DNA from: Blastocatellia bacterium AA13
GTDB taxonomy: Bacteria; Acidobacteriota; Blastocatellia; UBA7656
Assembly (NCBI GenBank): GCA_003222245.1
Contig: QHVH01000031.1
Location: 24,650-88,649, forward strand
Length of the DNA stretch: 64,000 nt
Direction: 5' to 3'
Shown here: positions 2,444-28,900 of the stretch, piece after piece
Layout of the letters: the number at the start of each line of letters is the position of its first letter
Numbering within the stretch: position 1 is the first letter of the stretch
Notes under the pieces: model-generated
Database searches by the model: none
Told to the model about the DNA's origin: nothing
The model's input: the letters and a program-made list of their open reading frames with translations, nothing else
Made by a program: the position numbers and the translations under genes

Positions 2444-3778
2444 TTGAAACCGGACACTCGACGCGCTGCATCCATCTCCCCGGCCGTTTCAACCGACTTC
2501 GGGCGCGCGTTATTGCGCGAAACCCCTAAACAGGCAGGCATACTTTTTTCCGCCCAGATGCTGTCGCTGGTCATAGGCGTGCTCGCTAACCTGATTCTGG
2601 GAAACGCCATGATCCAGACGGAACTCGGGCGGTTTGTCTTTTGTCAATCAGTGGTGTTGATGGCGGGACTCTTCTTTGAGGTTGGTATCTTTTCGGCTGG
2701 AGCCAGGGTTCTCGCTCTTGTCAAAGAGCCGGAGGAGCAGAAGCGCGCCGTTGGAGCCCTGGTAGCGGCGGCGCTCGTGATTGGAATTCTCTTCGCTGTG
2801 TTCATAGCCGCTGCCTCTTATCCACTCGATCTGATCTTCCATAGAAACGATCGAGCGCTGTTGATGGGAGCGGCGGCCCTTGCTTTTTTTCAGCCGTTTC
2901 AACTGATGATCGAGCAGAGTTGTACCGGCCTCAATCAAATTCAAAGGCTGTCCGCGTTTCAGCTCCTCGCAGCCGCCGCCAATCTGTTGATCCTTGCGGT
3001 GCTGGCGCTGACGGATCGGCTTACAGCCAGCGCCGCGCTGCTCAGTTATCTTGGAGGCCTCGGTATCGCCTCACTGTGGATACTTTCGCGGCTGCGTCCG
3101 CGCTTTCGCGGGCTCGGTCCGTTCGTGCGGCTCACGATGGCTGAGACGAAGAGTTATGGATTCAACATCTATCTCGCCAGACTCACCGGAGCGGCCTCAT
3201 CGCGACTCGATAATCTCATCATCGGCTACTTTCTCGGACGAGCATCGCTGAGCGACGCGCTGCTGGCTTTGTACTCAATACCTCAGCGCCTGGCCGCTCC
3301 CATCGCAACGTTGTCGCGCGCGGTTGGAGTCACCAGATTTCGGGCTTTCGCGGGCTTGCCTCGGATTCCCGCGCGAATACTAAAATGGAACGCGGGATTA
3401 TTGCTCATCGGATCTATCGGCATGGCTTCCGCTGGGCCCGTCGTGCTCTATTACCTGTTTCCAAAGTATCGAGAGGCCGCACCGCTTCTAATCCCATTCA
3501 GCGTTCTGAACTTCTTCGCCGGACTCTTTCAGCCCTACAACAGCTTTCTTGCATCGCATGGCCAGGGAGCGGCGTTGAGGAACGTCGCGGTAGCCGTGAC
3601 CATTACGAGTGTGGTTGGATTGGCAATTACGGTCCCGCGCTTTGGAATAACCGGAGCCGCGTGGACCGGCGCGGTTGCGATGGCTCTAGACTACCTTCTT
3701 CATCTTCACTACTATCGGAAATTCGAAAAGAAAGCGGAACTCGATCTTCATCGCGCCGAACATGCAATCGATGGCTGA
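2444..3778 (+). CDS. polysaccharide biosynthesis protein / oligosaccharide flippase (Wzx-like, MOP superfamily)
   Basis: A 444-aa polytopic membrane protein with 10-12 predicted hydrophobic helices. It sits between asnB and a methyltransferase/glycosyltransferase block, which is the usual position for a Wzx flippase. The true start could be an internal Met. Confidence 0.7.
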   Translation: MKPDTRRAASISPAVSTDFGRALLRETPKQAGILFSAQMLSLVIGVLANLILGNAMIQTELGRFVFCQSVVLMAGLFFEVGIFSAGARVLALVKEPEEQKRAVGALVAAALVIGILFAVFIAAASYPLDLIFHRNDRALLMGAAALAFFQPFQLMIEQSCTGLNQIQRLSAFQLLAAAANLLILAVLALTDRLTASAALLSYLGGLGIASLWILSRLRPRFRGLGPFVRLTMAETKSYGFNIYLARLTGAASSRLDNLIIGYFLGRASLSDALLALYSIPQRLAAPIATLSRAVGVTRFRAFAGLPRIPARILKWNAGLLLIGSIGMASAGPVVLYYLFPKYREAAPLLIPFSVLNFFAGLFQPYNSFLASHGQGAALRNVAVAVTITSVVGLAITVPRFGITGAAWTGAVAMALDYLLHLHYYRKFEKKAELDLHRAEHAIDG

Positions 3779-4632: not shown

Positions 4633-6417
4633 ATGACTCGCCTCGATCCTATTCATAACGACACGCGAACCGGTTCTGCCGTTCGCGCGAACAAGTCGAA
4701 TTCGGATGACAAGAATTCTCCGAAGCAGGTCGTAGCCCTCCTCGACCTGTCCGGAAACAAAGAGCGCGCAGCGGCGTGGGCCGAGTCGGAATTCAATCCG
4801 CGGGCGATTCAATACATCAACAAGGCCGATCTCAAGGGCGGAGCCGCTCGCGAGATGCTGGCCTGTGTGAGAGCGCTGAACCCTCACACATTTGTGGTGT
4901 TCACTTCCGATCTCGACATGCAGAGCGCTCGCGGATCGTTGATGCTCCTGGCACTCTTGTCAGGCGCTCGCGAGATCGTTTTGGCGGACAGCTCCGGGCG
5001 CGTGGTTCGCAGATCGCGGATCGGCGCGGCCCTGGTTGAAGCGCCTCGCCTCGCGATTGAGATGCTGTGCGGATATGCACTGGTCCTTCCATTTTCGTGG
5101 CTGCTGGCAGCCGTGCTCGGGCTAGCCATGAGATTTCGCGAAATTATTCGAACAGACCACGCAATTCAAAGAAGGACCGTCGATCAATCAGGCTCATGCA
5201 ACATCCTCTACATTCGTGCGACTCTTTCAGTCTTGCAAGAAGGCGGCATGTCGACACACGTCGAGGGCTTTCAGGGCGGTATGCTCGCGCTGGGCCATAC
5301 GTTGACACACGTGGAAGTAGGACGCCCAAACGGAACGCCCGAAGTTTCCGGCGCGGCGGTCGGCAACATCTCGGATAGAGTGCGCATTGCTCCCTCGGCA
5401 TTGGTCGGGGCAACCAAGGCACTGTTCGAGCTTTGGAATAATCTGGTGTTCAGCGTTGCAGCGTTTCGATTATTTGACTCGCCGCGCGACTTCGATTTCA
5501 TATATCAGCGCTACAGCAGGTTCAACTTGACCGGCGTATTGCTGAGTCTAACGACGGGGCTTCCGCTTGCGCTCGAATTCAACGGCTCCGAAGTTTGGGT
5601 GAGCAAGCACTGGGATTCAATTGGGCAGATGCCGCTGTTACGGCAATTCGAAAGGCTGAATTTGAAAGCCGCTGACGCCGTCTTTGTTGTATCAGAGGCC
5701 ATGAAGAACTCTTTGACGGCGGAAGGCGTCGACGACGCTCGAATCATCGTCAATCCGAACGGTGTCAACACGGAGATATTCCGGCCTGATTGCGGAGGGC
5801 GGATGATTCGTGAAGAGCTCGCAATCGATGATCAGGTGGTAGCCGGTTTCGTCGGAACTTTCGGACCCTGGCATGGCGCTCCGGTATTCGCCGAGGCAGC
5901 GCGACTCGTAGCCCGGCAAGCGCGCTGCCATTTTCTTTTCGTCGGTGATGGAGACGAGCGCCCTGCTGCCGAACGAATATTGTCACAGCTCCGAATCGGC
6001 GCGTTTACTTTCACCGGGCGCATTCCACATGACAGGGTTCCGTCATATCTTGACGCGTGTGACATTCTGGTCTCGCCGCATGTGCCGTTGGCCGATGGAA
6101 GCGAGTTCTTCGGATCGCCGACAAAGTTATTCGAATATATGGCTATGGCTCGCGCTATCGTCGCCAGCCGTCTAGGCCAGATCGCCGACATTATCGAAGA
6201 CGGCAAGAGCGGTTTACTTGTAGAGCCGGGAGACGTCGCCGCGCTGGCGGGCGCAATCGAGCGACTCTCGAATGACAAGGAGTTTCGAATGGCTCTAGGA
6301 GCCAATGCCAGAGACGTAGTCGAGACCCAATACACGTGGAAAGCGAACGCGTCGCGCGTGGTTGAAACGATGCAGGTTATTGTTCCTGAAGGGGAACGAG
6401 TCAATAGCCGGGGGTGA
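4633..6417 (+). CDS. glycosyltransferase family 4 (GT-B fold) with an N-terminal extension
   Basis: The C-terminal half has GT1/GT4 features: GFVGTFGPWHG, an E-x7-E-like region and FLFVGDGDERP. I placed the start at ATG 4633 (MTRLDP) to avoid overlap with the upstream methyltransferase. The ORF track gives 4531. Confidence 0.7.
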   Translation: MTRLDPIHNDTRTGSAVRANKSNSDDKNSPKQVVALLDLSGNKERAAAWAESEFNPRAIQYINKADLKGGAAREMLACVRALNPHTFVVFTSDLDMQSARGSLMLLALLSGAREIVLADSSGRVVRRSRIGAALVEAPRLAIEMLCGYALVLPFSWLLAAVLGLAMRFREIIRTDHAIQRRTVDQSGSCNILYIRATLSVLQEGGMSTHVEGFQGGMLALGHTLTHVEVGRPNGTPEVSGAAVGNISDRVRIAPSALVGATKALFELWNNLVFSVAAFRLFDSPRDFDFIYQRYSRFNLTGVLLSLTTGLPLALEFNGSEVWVSKHWDSIGQMPLLRQFERLNLKAADAVFVVSEAMKNSLTAEGVDDARIIVNPNGVNTEIFRPDCGGRMIREELAIDDQVVAGFVGTFGPWHGAPVFAEAARLVARQARCHFLFVGDGDERPAAERILSQLRIGAFTFTGRIPHDRVPSYLDACDILVSPHVPLADGSEFFGSPTKLFEYMAMARAIVASRLGQIADIIEDGKSGLLVEPGDVAALAGAIERLSNDKEFRMALGANARDVVETQYTWKANASRVVETMQVIVPEGERVNSRG

Positions 6418-6502
6418 AGCGCAGCGCAGCCCCCGGTATGGTCGAAACTTCCCAATTCGGTGTTCCCTGAACGTAGCGCCAAAGGGCGCGAGCTATGACC
6501 CT

Positions 6503-24400: not shown

Positions 24401-24648
24401 CCATCAGGGGCAAGCGCGTAGCGCGCCGCCCCTGGTCACGGCCCCCACACCCCTCTAGCGCTGAAGGCGCGACATAAGCGCTTCATTGCCGCGCTGCGCA
24501 AAAATTAACCATTTCTTGCGAAACGTTCACTTCGCACCTTTCAGTGCTCCGAGCCCTCATCTATTTCCGAGGATAATTACTGGGCCTTCATTCGCTCGCG
24601 CGCCTATAAAACCTGCGCCTTGGTATCCGAAAATATTTAAACTCCCGG

Positions 24649-24739
24649 GTTCCCTCGGAAACACCTTCTCTCTTCGTACCGGGGGCTGCGCTTCGCTGGC
24701 CCGCGGCTACTGACGCGTTCCCTTTCAGGGAACAATCCC
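24649..24739. repeat. solo copy of a roughly 114-bp two-hairpin repeat (same family as the tandem array at 28590-28900)
   Basis: TCTTCGTACCGGGGGCTGCGCTTCGCTGGCCCGCGGCTACTGACGCGTTCCCTTTCAGGGAACAATCCC is about 90% identical to the array units. It contains the CCGGGGG..CCCCCGG and GTTCCCT-TTC-AGGGAAC hairpins. Confidence 0.7.
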
Positions 24740-24778
24740 AAAATTCATTCAAGCTATGTTGTCACAACGACACCTGGT

Positions 24779-25852
24779 TTACTTGATCGAACTACACTTG
24801 AAAGATGCCGGATACGAAGCCACATAGAATCTAGCCATCGGGGGAGTATCCTTTAAGAAACTGGTCCCATTGAATGAACGCTCGATTAGATCACGGTTTG
24901 CTTTGAGTGTGTAGTCGATAAACTTCGCGGTCACATCGCCGCTTTCTTTGGCGTTCATGTCAAACATTTTCACCGGAGTACCGCAGGAGTAATCAAACGC
25001 TTTGATGTCGACCGACTTGATTTGCGGACTCTGCAACGTGCGAAAGTAAATGCGGCTGCGCTTCTGATCGTAGACAATGCTCCATTGCGTCCACGTGTCG
25101 CTCCGATTCGTCTGCGCGACATCACTCAAGACTTCGAAAGCATAGGCGACCGCTTGCTCGTCGGTTAATGGCCGCTTCTCGAACTCTTTCGTTTTCTTGA
25201 CAGCCCGCGTGAAGCGATCAAGCGACTCGTTTGAGTTGGCTTTCGCAACATCGGTGTGCTTCGCGTAATTCAGGGAATTATCGTAGGTGTCGTTGGTCAA
25301 AGTCGGCGTGGCAAGGCTTGCCCCCGTATGCACAATCATCATGCCTTTGAGAAATTCGATCGAGGCCGTGTTCCCGGCCTTGTCATTGATCAGGTAATGG
25401 ACTTTGACGTCGGACTCGATGCGCAGACCTTCGGCATTCTTGATGGCCTCGGCGGTTGTGGCGGAGTTGTCGAGCAAATACTGAATCCATTCCTGTGTGC
25501 CCACGGCGGATCGCGCGTCGACTTTCGGATACGCTGTATCGCTGAGCCACATTTGTTCGACAACCAGGCCCGCCTCATTCATGCCGCCGGTTGGATTCTC
25601 GCGTCCGTATTGATTAAAAGTTACGCTGCCGTATTTTGAGAGCCATTTCGCGCCGTTGTCAGAGTCAATGATCGTTGCGGTCTTAGCGACCCCGCGTTTG
25701 TTGACTAGTACCAGCGCGTCACCAATCGTCCAATCATAATTTCGTCCGAACAGAACCTCGCCCTTACCGTGCAGGCAGAACGTCGTGCAGGCAAACGCCT
25801 GATTAAGAAGGAGCGATAGGAGAGTGAATGTTAGACACGTAAGTTCTTTCAT
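24779..25852 (-). CDS. secreted Ntn-hydrolase, choloylglycine hydrolase / linear amide C-N hydrolase (penicillin V acylase-like) family
   Basis: Signal peptide MKELTCLTFTLLSLLLNQAFA is followed immediately by Cys (CTTFCLHGKG), the N-terminal nucleophile expected in this family. RNYDW and NEAG motifs are present. The start is set at MKEL (25852). The ORF track extends to 25966. Confidence 0.7.
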   Translation of the reverse strand: MKELTCLTFTLLSLLLNQAFACTTFCLHGKGEVLFGRNYDWTIGDALVLVNKRGVAKTATIIDSDNGAKWLSKYGSVTFNQYGRENPTGGMNEAGLVVEQMWLSDTAYPKVDARSAVGTQEWIQYLLDNSATTAEAIKNAEGLRIESDVKVHYLINDKAGNTASIEFLKGMMIVHTGASLATPTLTNDTYDNSLNYAKHTDVAKANSNESLDRFTRAVKKTKEFEKRPLTDEQAVAYAFEVLSDVAQTNRSDTWTQWSIVYDQKRSRIYFRTLQSPQIKSVDIKAFDYSCGTPVKMFDMNAKESGDVTAKFIDYTLKANRDLIERSFNGTSFLKDTPPMARFYVASYPASFKCSSIK

Positions 25853-26285
25853 AATTGATTCTTCCGATGCCGGGATAAAGCCGGCTGGTTGCATTGAATC
25901 AAAGTCCTCACACGTCGAGGTTTCCATCTTGGAGCACGGCTGCGGGGCCTGAGAAGGATTCGGCAATCAAGACATCGGGAGCACGATCCAACTTCGTGGC
26001 GAGTACGTCGGACAGCTCGCGGTAAGTGCGAGATGGCGCCCAAGGGACCGCGACGACGTGCGAACTTGCCCATTCGGGCTGGCGAGCGACGAAGCCGCTG
26101 ATGGTTGTCCCGAAGGGACAATCGGCAATAGCCCACCAGTTCACTGGTGGGTTCGTCGGGTAATTTGATCGAGAAGTGCCGAAGGCACGGCTGACTTGTT
26201 GTTTCAGAGCGCCGCAAGAGGACCACGCACATATTGCAGATTTCCGATGTGGTTCAAAGCCTCCACATACGAACTACATCAGCCG

Positions 26286-26522
26286 TCCCTTCGGGACTAG
26301 ATCGCCGCAGCGCTCTGGGACCCACCGATGAATCGGTGGGCTACTTTCAGACGATCCCTACGGGATTGACGTCTCTGCGCCAAAAATCTCTAATGGCCAA
26401 ACTCCAGCCACCGATGAATCGGCGGGCTCGAGCTTGGACAATGGCGGACCTGGGAGCGCAGGCATCTTGCCTGCTTCCCCCACCGATGAATCGGTGGGCT
26501 ATTAATCGAGCATCCCTTTGGG
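26286..26522. repeat. cluster of six short perfect hairpins, including three copies of CCCACCGAT-GAA-ATCGGTGGG
   Basis: The six hairpins are:
- GTCCC-TTC-GGGAC at 26286-26298.
- CCCACCGATGAATCGGTGGG at 26321-26340.
- ATCCC-TAC-GGGAT near 26355-26367.
- CCACCGATGAATCGGCGG at 26408-26425 (one mismatch).
- CCCACCGATGAATCGGTGGG at 26479-26498.
- CATCCC-TTT-GGGATG at 26508-26522. Confidence 0.6.
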
Positions 26523-26587
26523 ATGCCAATCGATCTGGTATATCCACTGATCTGGGACGCTGATCTCGGGTGTCAACTGACGGAGAG

Positions 26588-26848
26588 TTATGCCGCCGAC
26601 TGCTGATCGATTTCCCAGCCAGGAAATACAAGCACCGCCGGATGGCACTTGAGCGCGCGAGCCAGAATCTTGGCCCGCTCCAACCCTAGTCTTACGCGAT
26701 CATTCTCGATTGCCGAGATAGTCGACTGTGGTATGCCGGTTAGCTCGGCGAGTTGATTCTGACTCAGATACTGAAGCTCTCTAATGATCCGCACAGATTC
26801 GCCCACTGACACCTTCATACGACGCTTTGCAGAACGAAACTGACTCAT
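26588..26848 (-). CDS. XRE-family helix-turn-helix transcriptional regulator
   Basis: HTH_3 signature: IRELQYLSQNQLAELTGIPQSTISAIENDRVRLGLERAKILARAL. Confidence 0.7.
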   Translation of the reverse strand: MSQFRSAKRRMKVSVGESVRIIRELQYLSQNQLAELTGIPQSTISAIENDRVRLGLERAKILARALKCHPAVLVFPGWEIDQQSAA

Positions 26849-26900
26849 CTAAGGCCTCCGATCGTGTCGGATGTCAGTGTCTATGAGGGTGGAGATCAAG

Positions 26901-27164
26901 TTACTTTACCCCCTCGGATTCACGCAGGTTCCGGACCCATGCGGTGCTGTCCCGCATGTCGTCGCGATCTTGCCACATCCCTATGAACCGTTCATCGTGT
27001 AATTCAGAGCCCGCCGGTTGCGTGGCGGGCCGGCGTCCACCATACCGCTGATGCAAGTATGCAACAAATCCTTCCACCTCCCGTAGGGCTTCTTGTGGCA
27101 AAGAACGTATCTCGCGCAATATCTCATCAGGTGTCATGGTTCCTCCACCGACATTTTCTCTCAT
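26901..27164 (-). CDS. DUF2281-like small protein (putative orphan antitoxin-type addiction module component)
   Basis: MTPDEILREIRSLPQEALREVEGFVAYLHQRY, then a C-terminal ...MWQDRDDMRD tail, as in small antitoxin-like proteins. No cognate toxin gene is adjacent. The start could be the internal Met at about 27137. Confidence 0.45.
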   Translation of the reverse strand: MRENVGGGTMTPDEILREIRSLPQEALREVEGFVAYLHQRYGGRRPATQPAGSELHDERFIGMWQDRDDMRDSTAWVRNLRESEGVK

Positions 27165-27287
27165 TCGAAAGAGATGTCAACCTGAGCGGCCAACCGACTT
27201 GCGTCACCGGGCCGCGCATGCCAAGACAACCAGGGGAACGAATCGGCGTAATGGGAAAACTACCTGCGCGGCTCGTTCCTAAATCTC

Positions 27288-27701: not shown

Positions 27702-28016
27702 TTATGCGACGTTCAGTGGCTTGATTCGGTCAATCTTCCTCTTGGCGGATCGAGTCGCTTCCCAAAGGTCCAGCGCGCGCTGGGCATTGAGCCAGAATTC
27801 AGGCGAATTACCGAACAACCGCGAGAGGCGGAGGGCCATTTCCGGGCTGACAGCCCGCCGCTCGCGAAGCAACTCGTTGATTGTTTGGCGAGAGACCCCC
27901 AGTGCTTCAGCAAGGGCCGAGACCGTCAGGCCGAAGTCCGGCATGAAGTCCTCACGAAGCATCTCGCCCGGATGCGTCGGACGAACCTGCCTCTCTCCAA
28001 CGTTCACAATGCTCAT
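27702..28016 (-). CDS. higA: HigA-type antitoxin (XRE-HTH addiction module antidote protein)
   Basis: MLREDFMPDFGLTVSALAEALGVSRQTINELLRERRAVSPEMALRLSRLFGNSPEFWLNAQ is the canonical HigA/VapI signature. The gene lies 14 nt downstream of the toxin gene. Confidence 0.8.
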   Translation of the reverse strand: MSIVNVGERQVRPTHPGEMLREDFMPDFGLTVSALAEALGVSRQTINELLRERRAVSPEMALRLSRLFGNSPEFWLNAQRALDLWEATRSAKRKIDRIKPLNVA

Positions 28017-28029
28017 GCAACACCTCGTC

Positions 28030-28311
28030 TCAATGGTAGTCGGTCAGTTCCACATCGTAAGCATCACCGTCGACGAACCGAAAGCAGATGCGCCACTGAT
28101 CGTTGACAGCAATGGAATGTTGTCCCTTCCGCTCCTGCTTGAGTTCATGAAGGCGGTTGCTAGGAGGAACCTTCAAGTCGCCCAAGTGGGTCGCGAGGTC
28201 AAGGTATTCGAGCTTGCGCGTCGCACGCCTCGCGATATCCGGAGGAAACCGTCGCGACTCGCCAGTTGCATACAGCTCTTGCGTTTGGCGGTTCGCGAAC
28301 GTCTTGATCAC
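28030..28311 (-). CDS. higB: HigB-type toxin (RelE/ParE superfamily plasmid-maintenance killer protein)
   Basis: 93 aa beginning MIKTFANRQTQELYATG..., with ...HELKQERKGQHSIAVNDQWRICFRF. The toxin-first, antitoxin-second order is typical of higBA. Confidence 0.8.
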   Translation of the reverse strand: MIKTFANRQTQELYATGESRRFPPDIARRATRKLEYLDLATHLGDLKVPPSNRLHELKQERKGQHSIAVNDQWRICFRFVDGDAYDVELTDYH

Positions 28312-28589
28312 TGGTCAACTCTGATCTGTCACGTGATGCGTGTCAAGCCAGGAGACATCAAAGTAGCATAACGCCAGCGTCACCGGGCCGCGCATACCAA
28401 GATAATCAGGGAAACGAATCGGCGTAATGGGAAAACTACCTGCGCGCGGCTCCGGTGCACGCGGAGTTGGGCATCTGTCCACAATTGCGACAGTATCCGG
28501 TCGTATTCCGCATGGGTGTCTATCCAGAACCACACTATCGTATCGTCGGACTTTGCTCCGAGTGCTCGCCACCCTATGCCTGAGAACGG

Positions 28590-28900
28590 CTTGGGCGGGG
28601 AATCAAATCCTCCCTCGCACCGGGGGCTGCGCTTCGCTGACCCCCGGCTACTGGCGCGTTCCCTTTCAGGGAACAATCCCAAGAAAAAGATTCAAATCCC
28701 TGCGTTCGTTCTGGAACCAAATGCTCCCTCGCACCGGGGGCTGCGCTTCGCTCGCCCCCGGCTACTGACGCGTTCCCGTTCAGGGAACAATCTGAAATTA
28801 TCCAACCTTCGATGTTTCTCGTTCTGGAAATAAATTCTCCTTCGTACCGGGGGCTGCGCTTCGCTGGCCCGCTGCTATCCCGCTAGTCCCGGTAGCGTGT
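28590..28900. repeat. tandem array (about 2.7 copies, 114-bp period) of a novel two-hairpin repeat
   Basis: Unit starts fall at about 28611, 28725 and 28839. The core is TCCCTCGCACCGGGGGCTGCGCTTCGCTGACCCCCGGCTACTGGCGCGTTCCCTTTCAGGGAACAATC. The third copy diverges after CGCTTCGCTGGCCC. The inter-core segments share CGTTCTGGAA. Confidence 0.75.

Follow-up and report, generated by a model that had tools for sequence, protein, structure and literature searches.

Acido-Lenti-1 was described by Weinberg et al. (2010) from 89 sequences, most of them from Lentisphaera araneosa and Koribacter versatilis, and was graded there as probably RNA, of unknown function and at times found close to group II introns in Lentisphaerae (PMC2864571). 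Rfam holds it as family RF01687 under the type 'Gene; sRNA' (small RNA). The coordinates published in 2010 place many copies in each genome, in both orientations and in tandem arrays at 69- to 200-nt spacing (PMC2864571), and the genomes of the Rfam seed carry ~12 to 60 copies each. Among Y1 transposases, Quentin et al. (2018) set apart TnpAY1 subclass 1.2, which is IS200-like, low-copy and found mainly in Cyanobacteria and Bacteroidetes, without typical IS200 ends or a DNA partner (PMC6006769), and Di Nocera et al. (2013) described TIRYTs and TIRtrons, acidobacterial Y1 genes that lie between long inverted repeats with partial self-complementarity, some of them present more than once in the genome (PMC3733652). 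Here, we analyzed a cluster of hairpins at positions 26106-26525 of a 64,000-nt stretch of DNA from Blastocatellia bacterium AA13 (contig QHVH01000031.1; hereafter, the window), which contains copies of the Acido-Lenti-1 unit. Most likely, several non-autonomous copies of a mobile element with hairpin ends form a small cluster in this region; the full-length form of this element would span ~630 to 780 bp and carry one gene for a ~150-aa Y1 (HUH) IS200-like transposase between two inverted ~92-nt ends.

The hairpin cluster is real and lies far above chance level. Folding of the 441-nt stretch, a check proposed in an earlier sequence-only reading of this DNA, gave z = -7.5 against shuffles on either strand. 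The 20-mer CCCACCGATGAATCGGTGGG occurs in exact copies at 26321-26340 and 26479-26498 and in a 2-mismatch copy at 26407-26426, against an expectation of 0.00 occurrences over 100 shuffles. Direct reading of the sequence also confirmed the hairpins GTCCC-TTC-GGGAC (26285-26297), ATCCC-TAC-GGGAT (26354-26366), and GCATCCC-TTT-GGGATGC (26510-26526). The sequence-only reading had listed six perfect triloop hairpins, and these three are indeed present. The other three, given as copies of a 9-bp stem with a GAA triloop, had to be redrawn as an 8-bp stem (CCCACCGA/TCGGTGGG) closed by a TGAA tetraloop, on which the single-stranded DNA (ssDNA) fold and the Rfam alignment agree; a 9-bp stem with a triloop takes 21 nt (9+3+9) and thus cannot fit a 20-mer. 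The copy at 26407-26426 (GCCACCGATGAATCGGCGGG) is moreover imperfect, with two substitutions that disrupt two pairs. The feature also proved larger than first reported, with a true extent of 26106-26525, including an extra two-hairpin unit on the minus strand to the left (26106-26151), whose long hairpin reads CCCACCAG-TTCA-CTGGTGGG on the plus strand at 26132-26151, and two short hairpins at 26107-26119 and 26176-26188.

A scan of the whole window against Rfam returned three RF01687 matches, two at gathering level (41.8 and 37.4 bits; threshold, 37 bits) and one just below it (33.7 bits), and no other credible RNA family at permissive E-values; the window contains no tRNA or tmRNA genes. In the 46-nt RF01687 unit, an 8-bp stem that closes a 4-nt loop is connected through GGCUA and a 12-nt linker with CG at its end to a second stem of 5 bp, which closes a 3-nt loop; this layout was recovered in the window units by both the alignments to the model and the ssDNA folds. 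R1, a covariance model rebuilt from 46 of the sequences of Weinberg et al. (2010) and nothing else, scored these units at 44, 40.2, and 37 bits. The best of them, at 26106-26151 on the minus strand, combines the long hairpin CCCACCAG-TGAA-CTGGTGGG, GCTAT, a 12-nt linker and the short hairpin GTCCC-TTC-GGGAC (RF01687, 41.8 bits; R1, 44 bits, E = 5e-9). The second, at 26321-26367 on the plus strand, reads CCCACCGA-TGAA-TCGGTGGG, GCTAC, linker, ATCCC-TAC-GGGAT (RF01687, 37.4 bits; R1, 40.2 bits), and the third, a solo unit at 26479-26525 on the plus strand in tandem with the second, reads CCCACCGA-TGAA-TCGGTGGG, GCTAT, linker, CATCCC-TTT-GGGATG (RF01687, 33.7 bits, local E = 1e-5; R1, 37 bits, E = 3e-7). 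These are the only three full copies of the unit in the window, and their membership in the family is firm. Equally firm is the compensatory conservation of the stems: 95% of the cells in the 46-sequence seed alignment pair, and 12 of the 13 pairs covary. As a separate observation on the seed alignment, two of its pairs stand out, 4-17 with 11 and 37-41 with 9 non-standard cells among 46, for the most part in copies from Lentisphaera. The 28 non-standard cells (vs 6 G-U) are concentrated at these two pairs and by eye appear to be mostly A-C in the Lentisphaera copies (e.g., CCUAGC...GCCAGG); A-C on the motif strand corresponds to G-T on the opposite strand, which carries the TAG foot, and the bias is absent from the protein-selected set described below.

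In addition to the full units, R1 recognized two partial ones, comprising the linker end and the short hairpin, at 26176-26191 on the minus strand and 26276-26297 on the plus strand. They correspond to two inner arms: the left one, AGTGCCGAAGGCACGGCTGA (26175-26194, minus), holds the linker end and the hairpin GTGCC-GAA-GGCAC at 26176-26188, and is 90% complementary to the right one, TCAGCCGTCCCTTCGGGACT (26279-26298, plus), which holds the hairpin at 26285-26297. An inner hairpin ~22 nt upstream of the long hairpin is also present in the flanks of the 2010 seed sequences. Its occurrence there and in the doublets described next implies that the Rfam motif covers only the outer part of an end of ~92 nt.

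To collect relatives by DNA alone, we scanned a species-representative genome collection with the pattern CCCACC-N8-GGTGGGCTA, which returned at least 119 stretches. The pattern has 15 specified bases and ~1000 chance matches were estimated in the collection; each stretch was therefore verified with R1, yielding ~130 matches above 30 bits in 65 loci. By label, most of the metagenome-assembled genomes (MAGs) that carry these loci belong to Acidobacteriota, Planctomycetota, and Verrucomicrobiota, and one each to Hydrogenedentes, KSB1, and Calditrichia; close relatives of the window units occur in Acidobacteriota MAGs, e.g., at locus L083 in a Blastocatellia MAG. One arrangement dominated, with a minus-strand unit followed 88 to 169 nt on by a plus-strand unit in 29 of 48 neighboring pairs (28 loci and the window), and the pair 26106-26151/26321-26367 of the window is arranged in this way. 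Side-by-side comparison revealed a four-module architecture that these doublets share across phyla: outer unit, ~22 nt, inner arm (AGTCCCnnnGGGAC and GGCTGA or GGCACA), variable center, mirror arm, ~22 nt, and outer unit. The window doublet fits it exactly, with the inner arms at 26175-26194 and 26279-26298 on either side of an 84-nt central spacer (26195-26278). It is not one long perfect palindrome, since the symmetry is limited to the hairpin modules and the spacer is asymmetric.

The unit is also multicopy on one Sedimentisphaerales chromosome (OY970194.1). A side observation on this chromosome concerns four copies of a ~400-nt repeat (L021 3972-4165, L028 1060-1253, L042 7688-7882, and L084 3348-3472) with terminal inverted repeats of its own, GGGTGCGGTCGG...CCGACCGCACCC. 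The repeat holds two Acido-Lenti-1 half-elements tail-to-tail, whereas the usual doublet is head-to-head, and recalls a right-end/left-end junction.

Clustering of the open reading frames (ORFs) in the 65 DNA-selected loci unveiled one recurrent small protein family, present in 6 loci. Its gene lies between a minus-strand and a plus-strand unit in four of the six (L083, L105, L115, and L053), as exemplified by L083 with units at 784-831 and 1508-1555 and the ORF at 883-1413. At L094 the gene is cut by the start of the locus and only the downstream unit is visible, and the right flank at L043 consists of two minus-strand units ahead of a plus-strand one. Gene-less doublets outnumber Y1 copies in this set (29 vs 6). 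The proteins, of ~150 aa, match PF01797 (Y1_Tnp, IS200-like) with 67 to 100 bits and display the HUH motif DH[LIV]H, the string WQEGYGAFS, the tyrosine motif Y---Q--HH with invariant Y115, Q119, H122, and H123, and a conserved C-terminal tail (F..E....L......Y). The IS200 model NF033573 (cut-off, 55) scored 58.6 bits with one protein and 47.5 bits with another, whereas the model of REP-associated tyrosine transposases (RAYTs; REP, repetitive extragenic palindromic sequence), NF047646 (cut-off, 80), yielded only 23.6 and 25.1 bits and thus did not place them among RAYTs. IS608 TnpA (E = 1e-12) and ISDra2 TnpA are the nearest solved structures, and the structure of the E. coli RAYT was not matched at E <= 0.01. 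The TnpA proteins of IS608 and ISDra2 are transposases that act on hairpins in single-stranded DNA.

The association also held when loci were selected by the protein alone. A metagenome scan of this kind identified 593 relatives among 600 stretches, of which the best 80 were kept with 3-kb flanks. R1 found 212 units in them; none of the 80 loci lacks a unit less than or equal to 160 nt away from the Y1 gene, an obligatory association in this set. The canonical arrangement, with a minus-strand unit upstream (median distance, 55 nt) and a plus-strand unit downstream (median, 50 nt), was observed in 50 of the 80 loci; among the remaining 30, several are truncated because the contig ends there (upstream in 4 cases), and in others one side carries a unit of opposite orientation or no unit that reaches the threshold. 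The full element begins with an outer unit, followed by ~22 nt and AGTCCCGnnGGGACGGCTGA(A); the ribosome-binding site and the gene with its stop codon come next, and TCAGCCGTCCCnnCGGGACT, ~22 nt, and a second outer unit close it. Read outwards from the gene, each ~92-nt end comprises TCAGCCG and an inner 5-bp hairpin, then, after ~22 nt, a GC-rich hairpin of 8 bp whose loop is TNAA, followed by GCTA(T/C), a linker of 12 nt, and, outermost, another 5-bp hairpin. The end-units are also multiplied next to some Y1 genes, either as tandem arrays with 68- to 74-nt spacing or as runs of 2 to 3 gene-less doublets (e.g., L138 2641-2940 and 3497-3678, L181 539-1273, and L160 326-912), resembling the clusters of bacterial interspersed mosaic elements (BIMEs) and REPINs (REP doublets) of E. 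coli REPtrons.

Pairwise blastn of all loci delimited the element. Similarity of 80 to 90% is confined to 600 to 780 nt that comprise the gene and both ends, and stops at the edges of the outer units, beyond which the DNA is unrelated between loci. Examples of such boundaries are L145 123-752 versus L177 2904-3533, where the units occupy 123-169 and 707-752 in the former and 2904-2950 and 3488-3533 in the latter, and L083 783-1557 versus L128 896-122. The element thus has discrete boundaries in unrelated genomic contexts. Among 54 elements there is no target-site duplication of >=4 nt beyond chance, as expected for HUH Y1 transposition, and no conserved flanking target motif. Within an element, the long hairpins of the two ends, each read outwards, agree at 18.5 of 20 positions, as compared to 15.4 of 20 between loci. 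Watson-Crick pairs make up 98.9% of the stem cells in the protein-selected set (136 distinct units), with 7 G-U and 9 A-C cells and no strand bias. This near absence of wobble pairs, together with the lack of strand bias, accords with hairpins or palindromes kept at the DNA level rather than with a transcribed RNA with a fixed sense strand.

Comparison with full-length elements provides the probable identity of each part of the window cluster. Positions 26279-26365 align with Y1-element ends from L141, L143, and L043 at ~80% identity across ~90 nt, and 26321-26357 match the right end of the L083 element at 94.6% over 37 nt. The left inner arm of the window has its counterpart in full elements, where AGTCCCnnnGGGACGGCTGA separates the outer unit from the start of the Y1 gene; the right inner arm belongs to the same sequence class as the arm located 3′ of the Y1 stop codon, and the central spacer holds the position of the transposase gene. 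The stretch 26106-26367 is a doublet that resembles REPINs or miniature inverted-repeat transposable elements (MITEs), in which both ~92-nt ends are kept and 84 nt stand in the place of the gene. Two extra end-units follow on the right: the intact solo unit at 26479-26525 and a decayed one at 26407-26428 on the plus strand (GCCACCGATGAATCGGCGGGCT), which is reduced to a long hairpin with two broken pairs, shows no recognizable short hairpin and no full model match, and folds weakly as ssDNA (-6 kcal/mol, z = -1.8).

RF01687 is the same two-hairpin 46-nt unit, with two window copies at gathering score, but its context differs from the Rfam record: the latter presents an sRNA of unknown function with occasional group II intron proximity, whereas the unit described here appears as part of the terminal inverted repeat of a Y1 element, the true end of which is ~92 nt long and has three hairpins. 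Resemblances to the REP/BIME/REPIN-RAYT systems of E. coli and Pseudomonas (REPtrons; PMC2817692, PMC3733652, PMC6006769) include inverted doublets, a Y1/HUH gene flanked by inverted repeats, and clusters of units beside the gene. REP sequences are also GC-rich extragenic palindromes in many copies; the window units are extragenic, and their multiplication, seen in the seed genomes and on the Sedimentisphaerales chromosome, is suggested for the window by breaks in assemblies of the locus. The conserved tetranucleotide at the 5′ foot is (A/G)TAG here versus GT[AG]G in REP; read on the opposite strand, it is ATAG in most copies and GTAG in 26321-26367 and in one subfamily. The differences are that the enzyme is not a class-2 RAYT (YIxxQxxHH instead of the YxxxNP motif), that the unit is a double or triple hairpin of 46 to 92 nt instead of a single 20- to 40-nt palindrome, and that the gene and its ends look like one mobile block. 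The elements of the IS200/IS605 family (IS608 and ISDra2; PMC5027513) share with it the Y1 fold class, hairpin ends, the lack of target-site duplication, and gene-less derivatives. Their ends, however, are not inverted repeats and carry the left and right hairpins on one strand, whereas the ends described here are inverted ~92-nt copies; furthermore, IS200/IS605 elements insert 3′ of a specific tetra- or pentanucleotide, while no conserved motif was seen beside the 54 elements compared here, with their ends as delimited above. Subclass 1.2 of Quentin et al. (2018) shares the Y---Q--HH signature, an extra conserved C-terminal segment, and closeness to IS200 transposases, and membership in it is judged here by signature alone; the relatives identified in this work come from Acidobacteriota, Planctomycetota, and Verrucomicrobiota loci and untyped metagenome contigs, and have a clear hairpin partner. 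We also considered whether the family might be the acidobacterial TIRYTs (aba 1552, aba 3477, tsa 392, and others), and discarded this identity because those proteins carry VMP[DE]HVH and Y...NP, i.e., they are of the RAYT class and constitute a different protein family (PMC3733652).

How the units arise and spread can be envisaged by analogy with these systems. The hairpins would form in single-stranded DNA, for instance at the replication fork, and a Y1 transposase encoded elsewhere in the genome would bind and cleave next to the (A/G)TAG foot of the long hairpin. The same enzyme could mobilize or multiply gene-less copies in trans, as proposed for REP/REPIN-RAYT and for the MITEs of IS200/IS605, and any effect on the neighboring genes for the XRE-type regulator and the Ntn-hydrolase, such as transcript stabilization or insulation, would be a by-product. 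Several points weigh against assigning the window cluster to such an element. Tblastn detected no Y1 similarity anywhere in the 64-kb window, and a cognate enzyme of the copies present there is hypothetical. The set of 80 loci chosen by protein represents the nearest relatives (53 to 89% identity) of the proteins first found beside units, so that its pattern speaks for close relatives. Neither an empty site nor a presence/absence polymorphism was found, all eight contigs related to the window carrying the units, and an automated indel screen among 200 loci did not uncover an empty site either. Binding, cleavage, and mobilization are deduced rather than observed, and the inverted ends, unlike those of IS200/IS605, mean that this model does not supply the strand logic of the reaction, which may instead be closer to REPIN processing. 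Lastly, the hairpins would also form in any transcript that spans them and may have a role at the RNA level. One 510-nt difference in the comparisons, L199 2383-2899 against L201 1190-1214 and L202 214-242, is no empty site: the segment, with an unrelated small ORF, adjoins the left end of the Y1 element in L199, is missing from the other two contigs, and is a difference in cargo or neighbor and not an Acido-Lenti-1 unit.

Among other explanations, the one that deserves most attention, although we consider it the less probable account, is a domesticated REPtron, in which each genome has a single Y1 gene that does not move but keeps up and multiplies the gene-less units, and the host recruits these for transcript stability, termination, or binding of nucleoid proteins, as with REP/BIME in E. 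coli. Inverted units flanking the gene, the doublet arrays next to it (L160, L181, and L138), and the excess of gene-less copies all accord with this possibility, as does the Y---Q--HH signature of a class that Quentin et al. (2018) regard as low-copy and without insertion-sequence properties (PMC6006769). However, the gene and its two ends recur as one discrete block of 600 to 780 nt with 80 to 90% identity in unrelated contexts, and thus look like a moving insertion sequence. The sequence-only reading had remarked that many scattered copies of the 20-mer would favor a generic REP-type element, and of all the outcomes it named this one is nearest to the evidence gathered here. It had also proposed a structured non-coding RNA. 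On this view, which the typing of Acido-Lenti-1 in Rfam implies, each unit would encode a small RNA with a trans-acting or structural role, in agreement with the RF01687 match, the strong covariation of both stems, the original rating as probably RNA (PMC2864571), and the good folding of the stretch as RNA. We nevertheless find it improbable. Covariation is equally expected for hairpins read as ssDNA, and units that occur in both orientations, in tandem arrays, and in inverted pairs around a transposase gene, with edges that coincide with the boundaries of a mobile DNA segment, are left unexplained by an RNA gene. Their stems are 98.9% Watson-Crick without G-U excess on either strand, no sigma-70-like promoter was predicted in 25800-27000, and none of the four terminator-like sites in that interval coincides with an intact unit.

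The remaining two explanations, both raised in the sequence-only reading, fare worse still. The palindromes could be viewed as operators for the adjacent XRE (26588-26848) or HigA-like repressors, since 20-bp dyad symmetries adjoin helix-turn-helix (HTH) genes; yet the XRE stop codon precedes the sites, which are thus downstream of the gene, identical units are found at ~200 unrelated loci without XRE neighbors in several phyla, and the stems covary freely while pairing is kept, which fits a hairpin and not a fixed protein-recognition sequence, so that an operator array is rejected as extremely unlikely. That the stretch is what remains of a conjugative or rolling-circle element's origin of transfer (oriT) or single-strand origin appears just as implausible. 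Hairpins rich in GC do characterize nic sites and single-strand origins, and one part of the suggestion has a counterpart in our findings in that the partner protein is an HUH single-strand DNA nuclease, of the family shared with relaxases and Rep proteins. The units, however, are multicopy, chromosomal, and linked to a Y1 transposase instead of a relaxase, and the ORFs sampled from the window, a subset of the total, and from the related contig L001 include no relaxase, coupling protein, type IV secretion system, Rep, or integrase. The claim that the cluster sits inside a decayed conjugative element likewise found no support. The neighbors sampled within 10 kb and across the window are ordinary chromosomal genes, namely hfq, tmk, homoserine dehydrogenase, gatC, CN-hydrolase, asparagine synthase, glycosyltransferase, Ppx/GppA, MacB, AcrB, and toxin-antitoxin pairs.

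Returning to the mobile-element interpretation, its extension to the whole family is put forward with more reserve. By a modest margin of belief, we favor that Acido-Lenti-1 is not an sRNA but the terminal module of a widespread, previously unrecognized family of ssDNA elements, in which an orphan Y1 enzyme with the 'subclass 1.2' signature would act on inverted multi-hairpin ends and spawn REPIN/MITE-like doublets and arrays in Acidobacteriota, Planctomycetota, Verrucomicrobiota, Lentisphaerota, and other phyla, thus being intermediate between IS200/IS605 and RAYT/REP. The motif itself has been known since 2010 and is in Rfam; within the literature searched, the coverage of which is incomplete, we found no mention of its link to a Y1 transposase, of the three-hairpin inverted ends of ~92 nt, or of the doublet derivatives. 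If this proposal is correct, an orphan Rfam sRNA becomes the end of a mobile element, which changes the annotation of its hits in soil genomes and in those of the Planctomycetes-Verrucomicrobia-Chlamydiae (PVC) group, and a branch of Y1/HUH enzymes gains a concrete DNA substrate with defined hairpins, foot sequence, and boundaries. The family might then bridge the transposing IS200/IS605 elements and the domesticated RAYT/REP systems. For the window itself, an operator array, an oriT, and a conjugative remnant are removed as leads, and breaks in metagenome assemblies find an explanation.

The locus is present on eight soil-metagenome contigs, all of which carry the units. Five of the eight end inside or just before the repeat region: L005, L006, L007, and L008, from four independent metagenome assemblies, stop at the center of the doublet, and L002 ~90 nt beyond it. 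Assemblies break in this way at multicopy or inverted repeats, as this element would be. In the window, the cluster is bounded on the left by the start of a choloylglycine-hydrolase-family gene (24779-25966) and on the right by the stop codon of the XRE-type HTH gene (26588-26848), both on the minus strand, which agrees with the earlier placement between an XRE gene and an Ntn-hydrolase, except that the repeats reach farther left, to 26106.

Further features lie in the surroundings. A perfect hairpin, GCAGGCA-TCT-TGCCTGC, at 26457-26473 is unlike the family consensus, lies 5 nt ahead of the solo unit, and folds as ssDNA with -7.7 kcal/mol (z = -3.3). On the minus strand, a terminator-like hairpin with a T-rich tail (GGTGGCTGGAGTTTGGCCATT AGAGATTTTT; 26392-26412) coincides in part with the degenerate unit; it is located 176 nt past the stop codon of the XRE gene and could be the real terminator of that transcript. 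A 78-aa ORF called on contig L004 (25908-26144, minus) starts inside the left end-unit, its N terminus (MNWWAIADCPFGTT...) being translated repeat; it has no Pfam match and is probably spurious or a gene fragment. Directly to the right of the cluster lie the XRE HTH gene, a DUF2281-like ORF (26588-27164 for both), and a HigB/HigA pair (27702-28311), the latter flanked by a 70-nt direct repeat with 94% identity (27201-27270 and 28377-28446). The window also contains a second repeat family, at 6379-6438, 24630-24741, 28599-28682, 28713-28792, and 28826-28877, which is unrelated in sequence but has a similar layout: CCGGGGG and CCCCCGG around a 14-nt loop (CTGCGCTTCGCTGA), CTAC, 6 nt, and GTTCCC-TTTCA-GGGAAC. 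Its complement has the form of a classical REP headed by GTAG, and Rfam contains no match to it. Its copies lie beside toxin-antitoxin genes and in tandem at 28.6-28.9 kb, and both repeat families accumulate around the small toxin-antitoxin-type genes to the right of the cluster.

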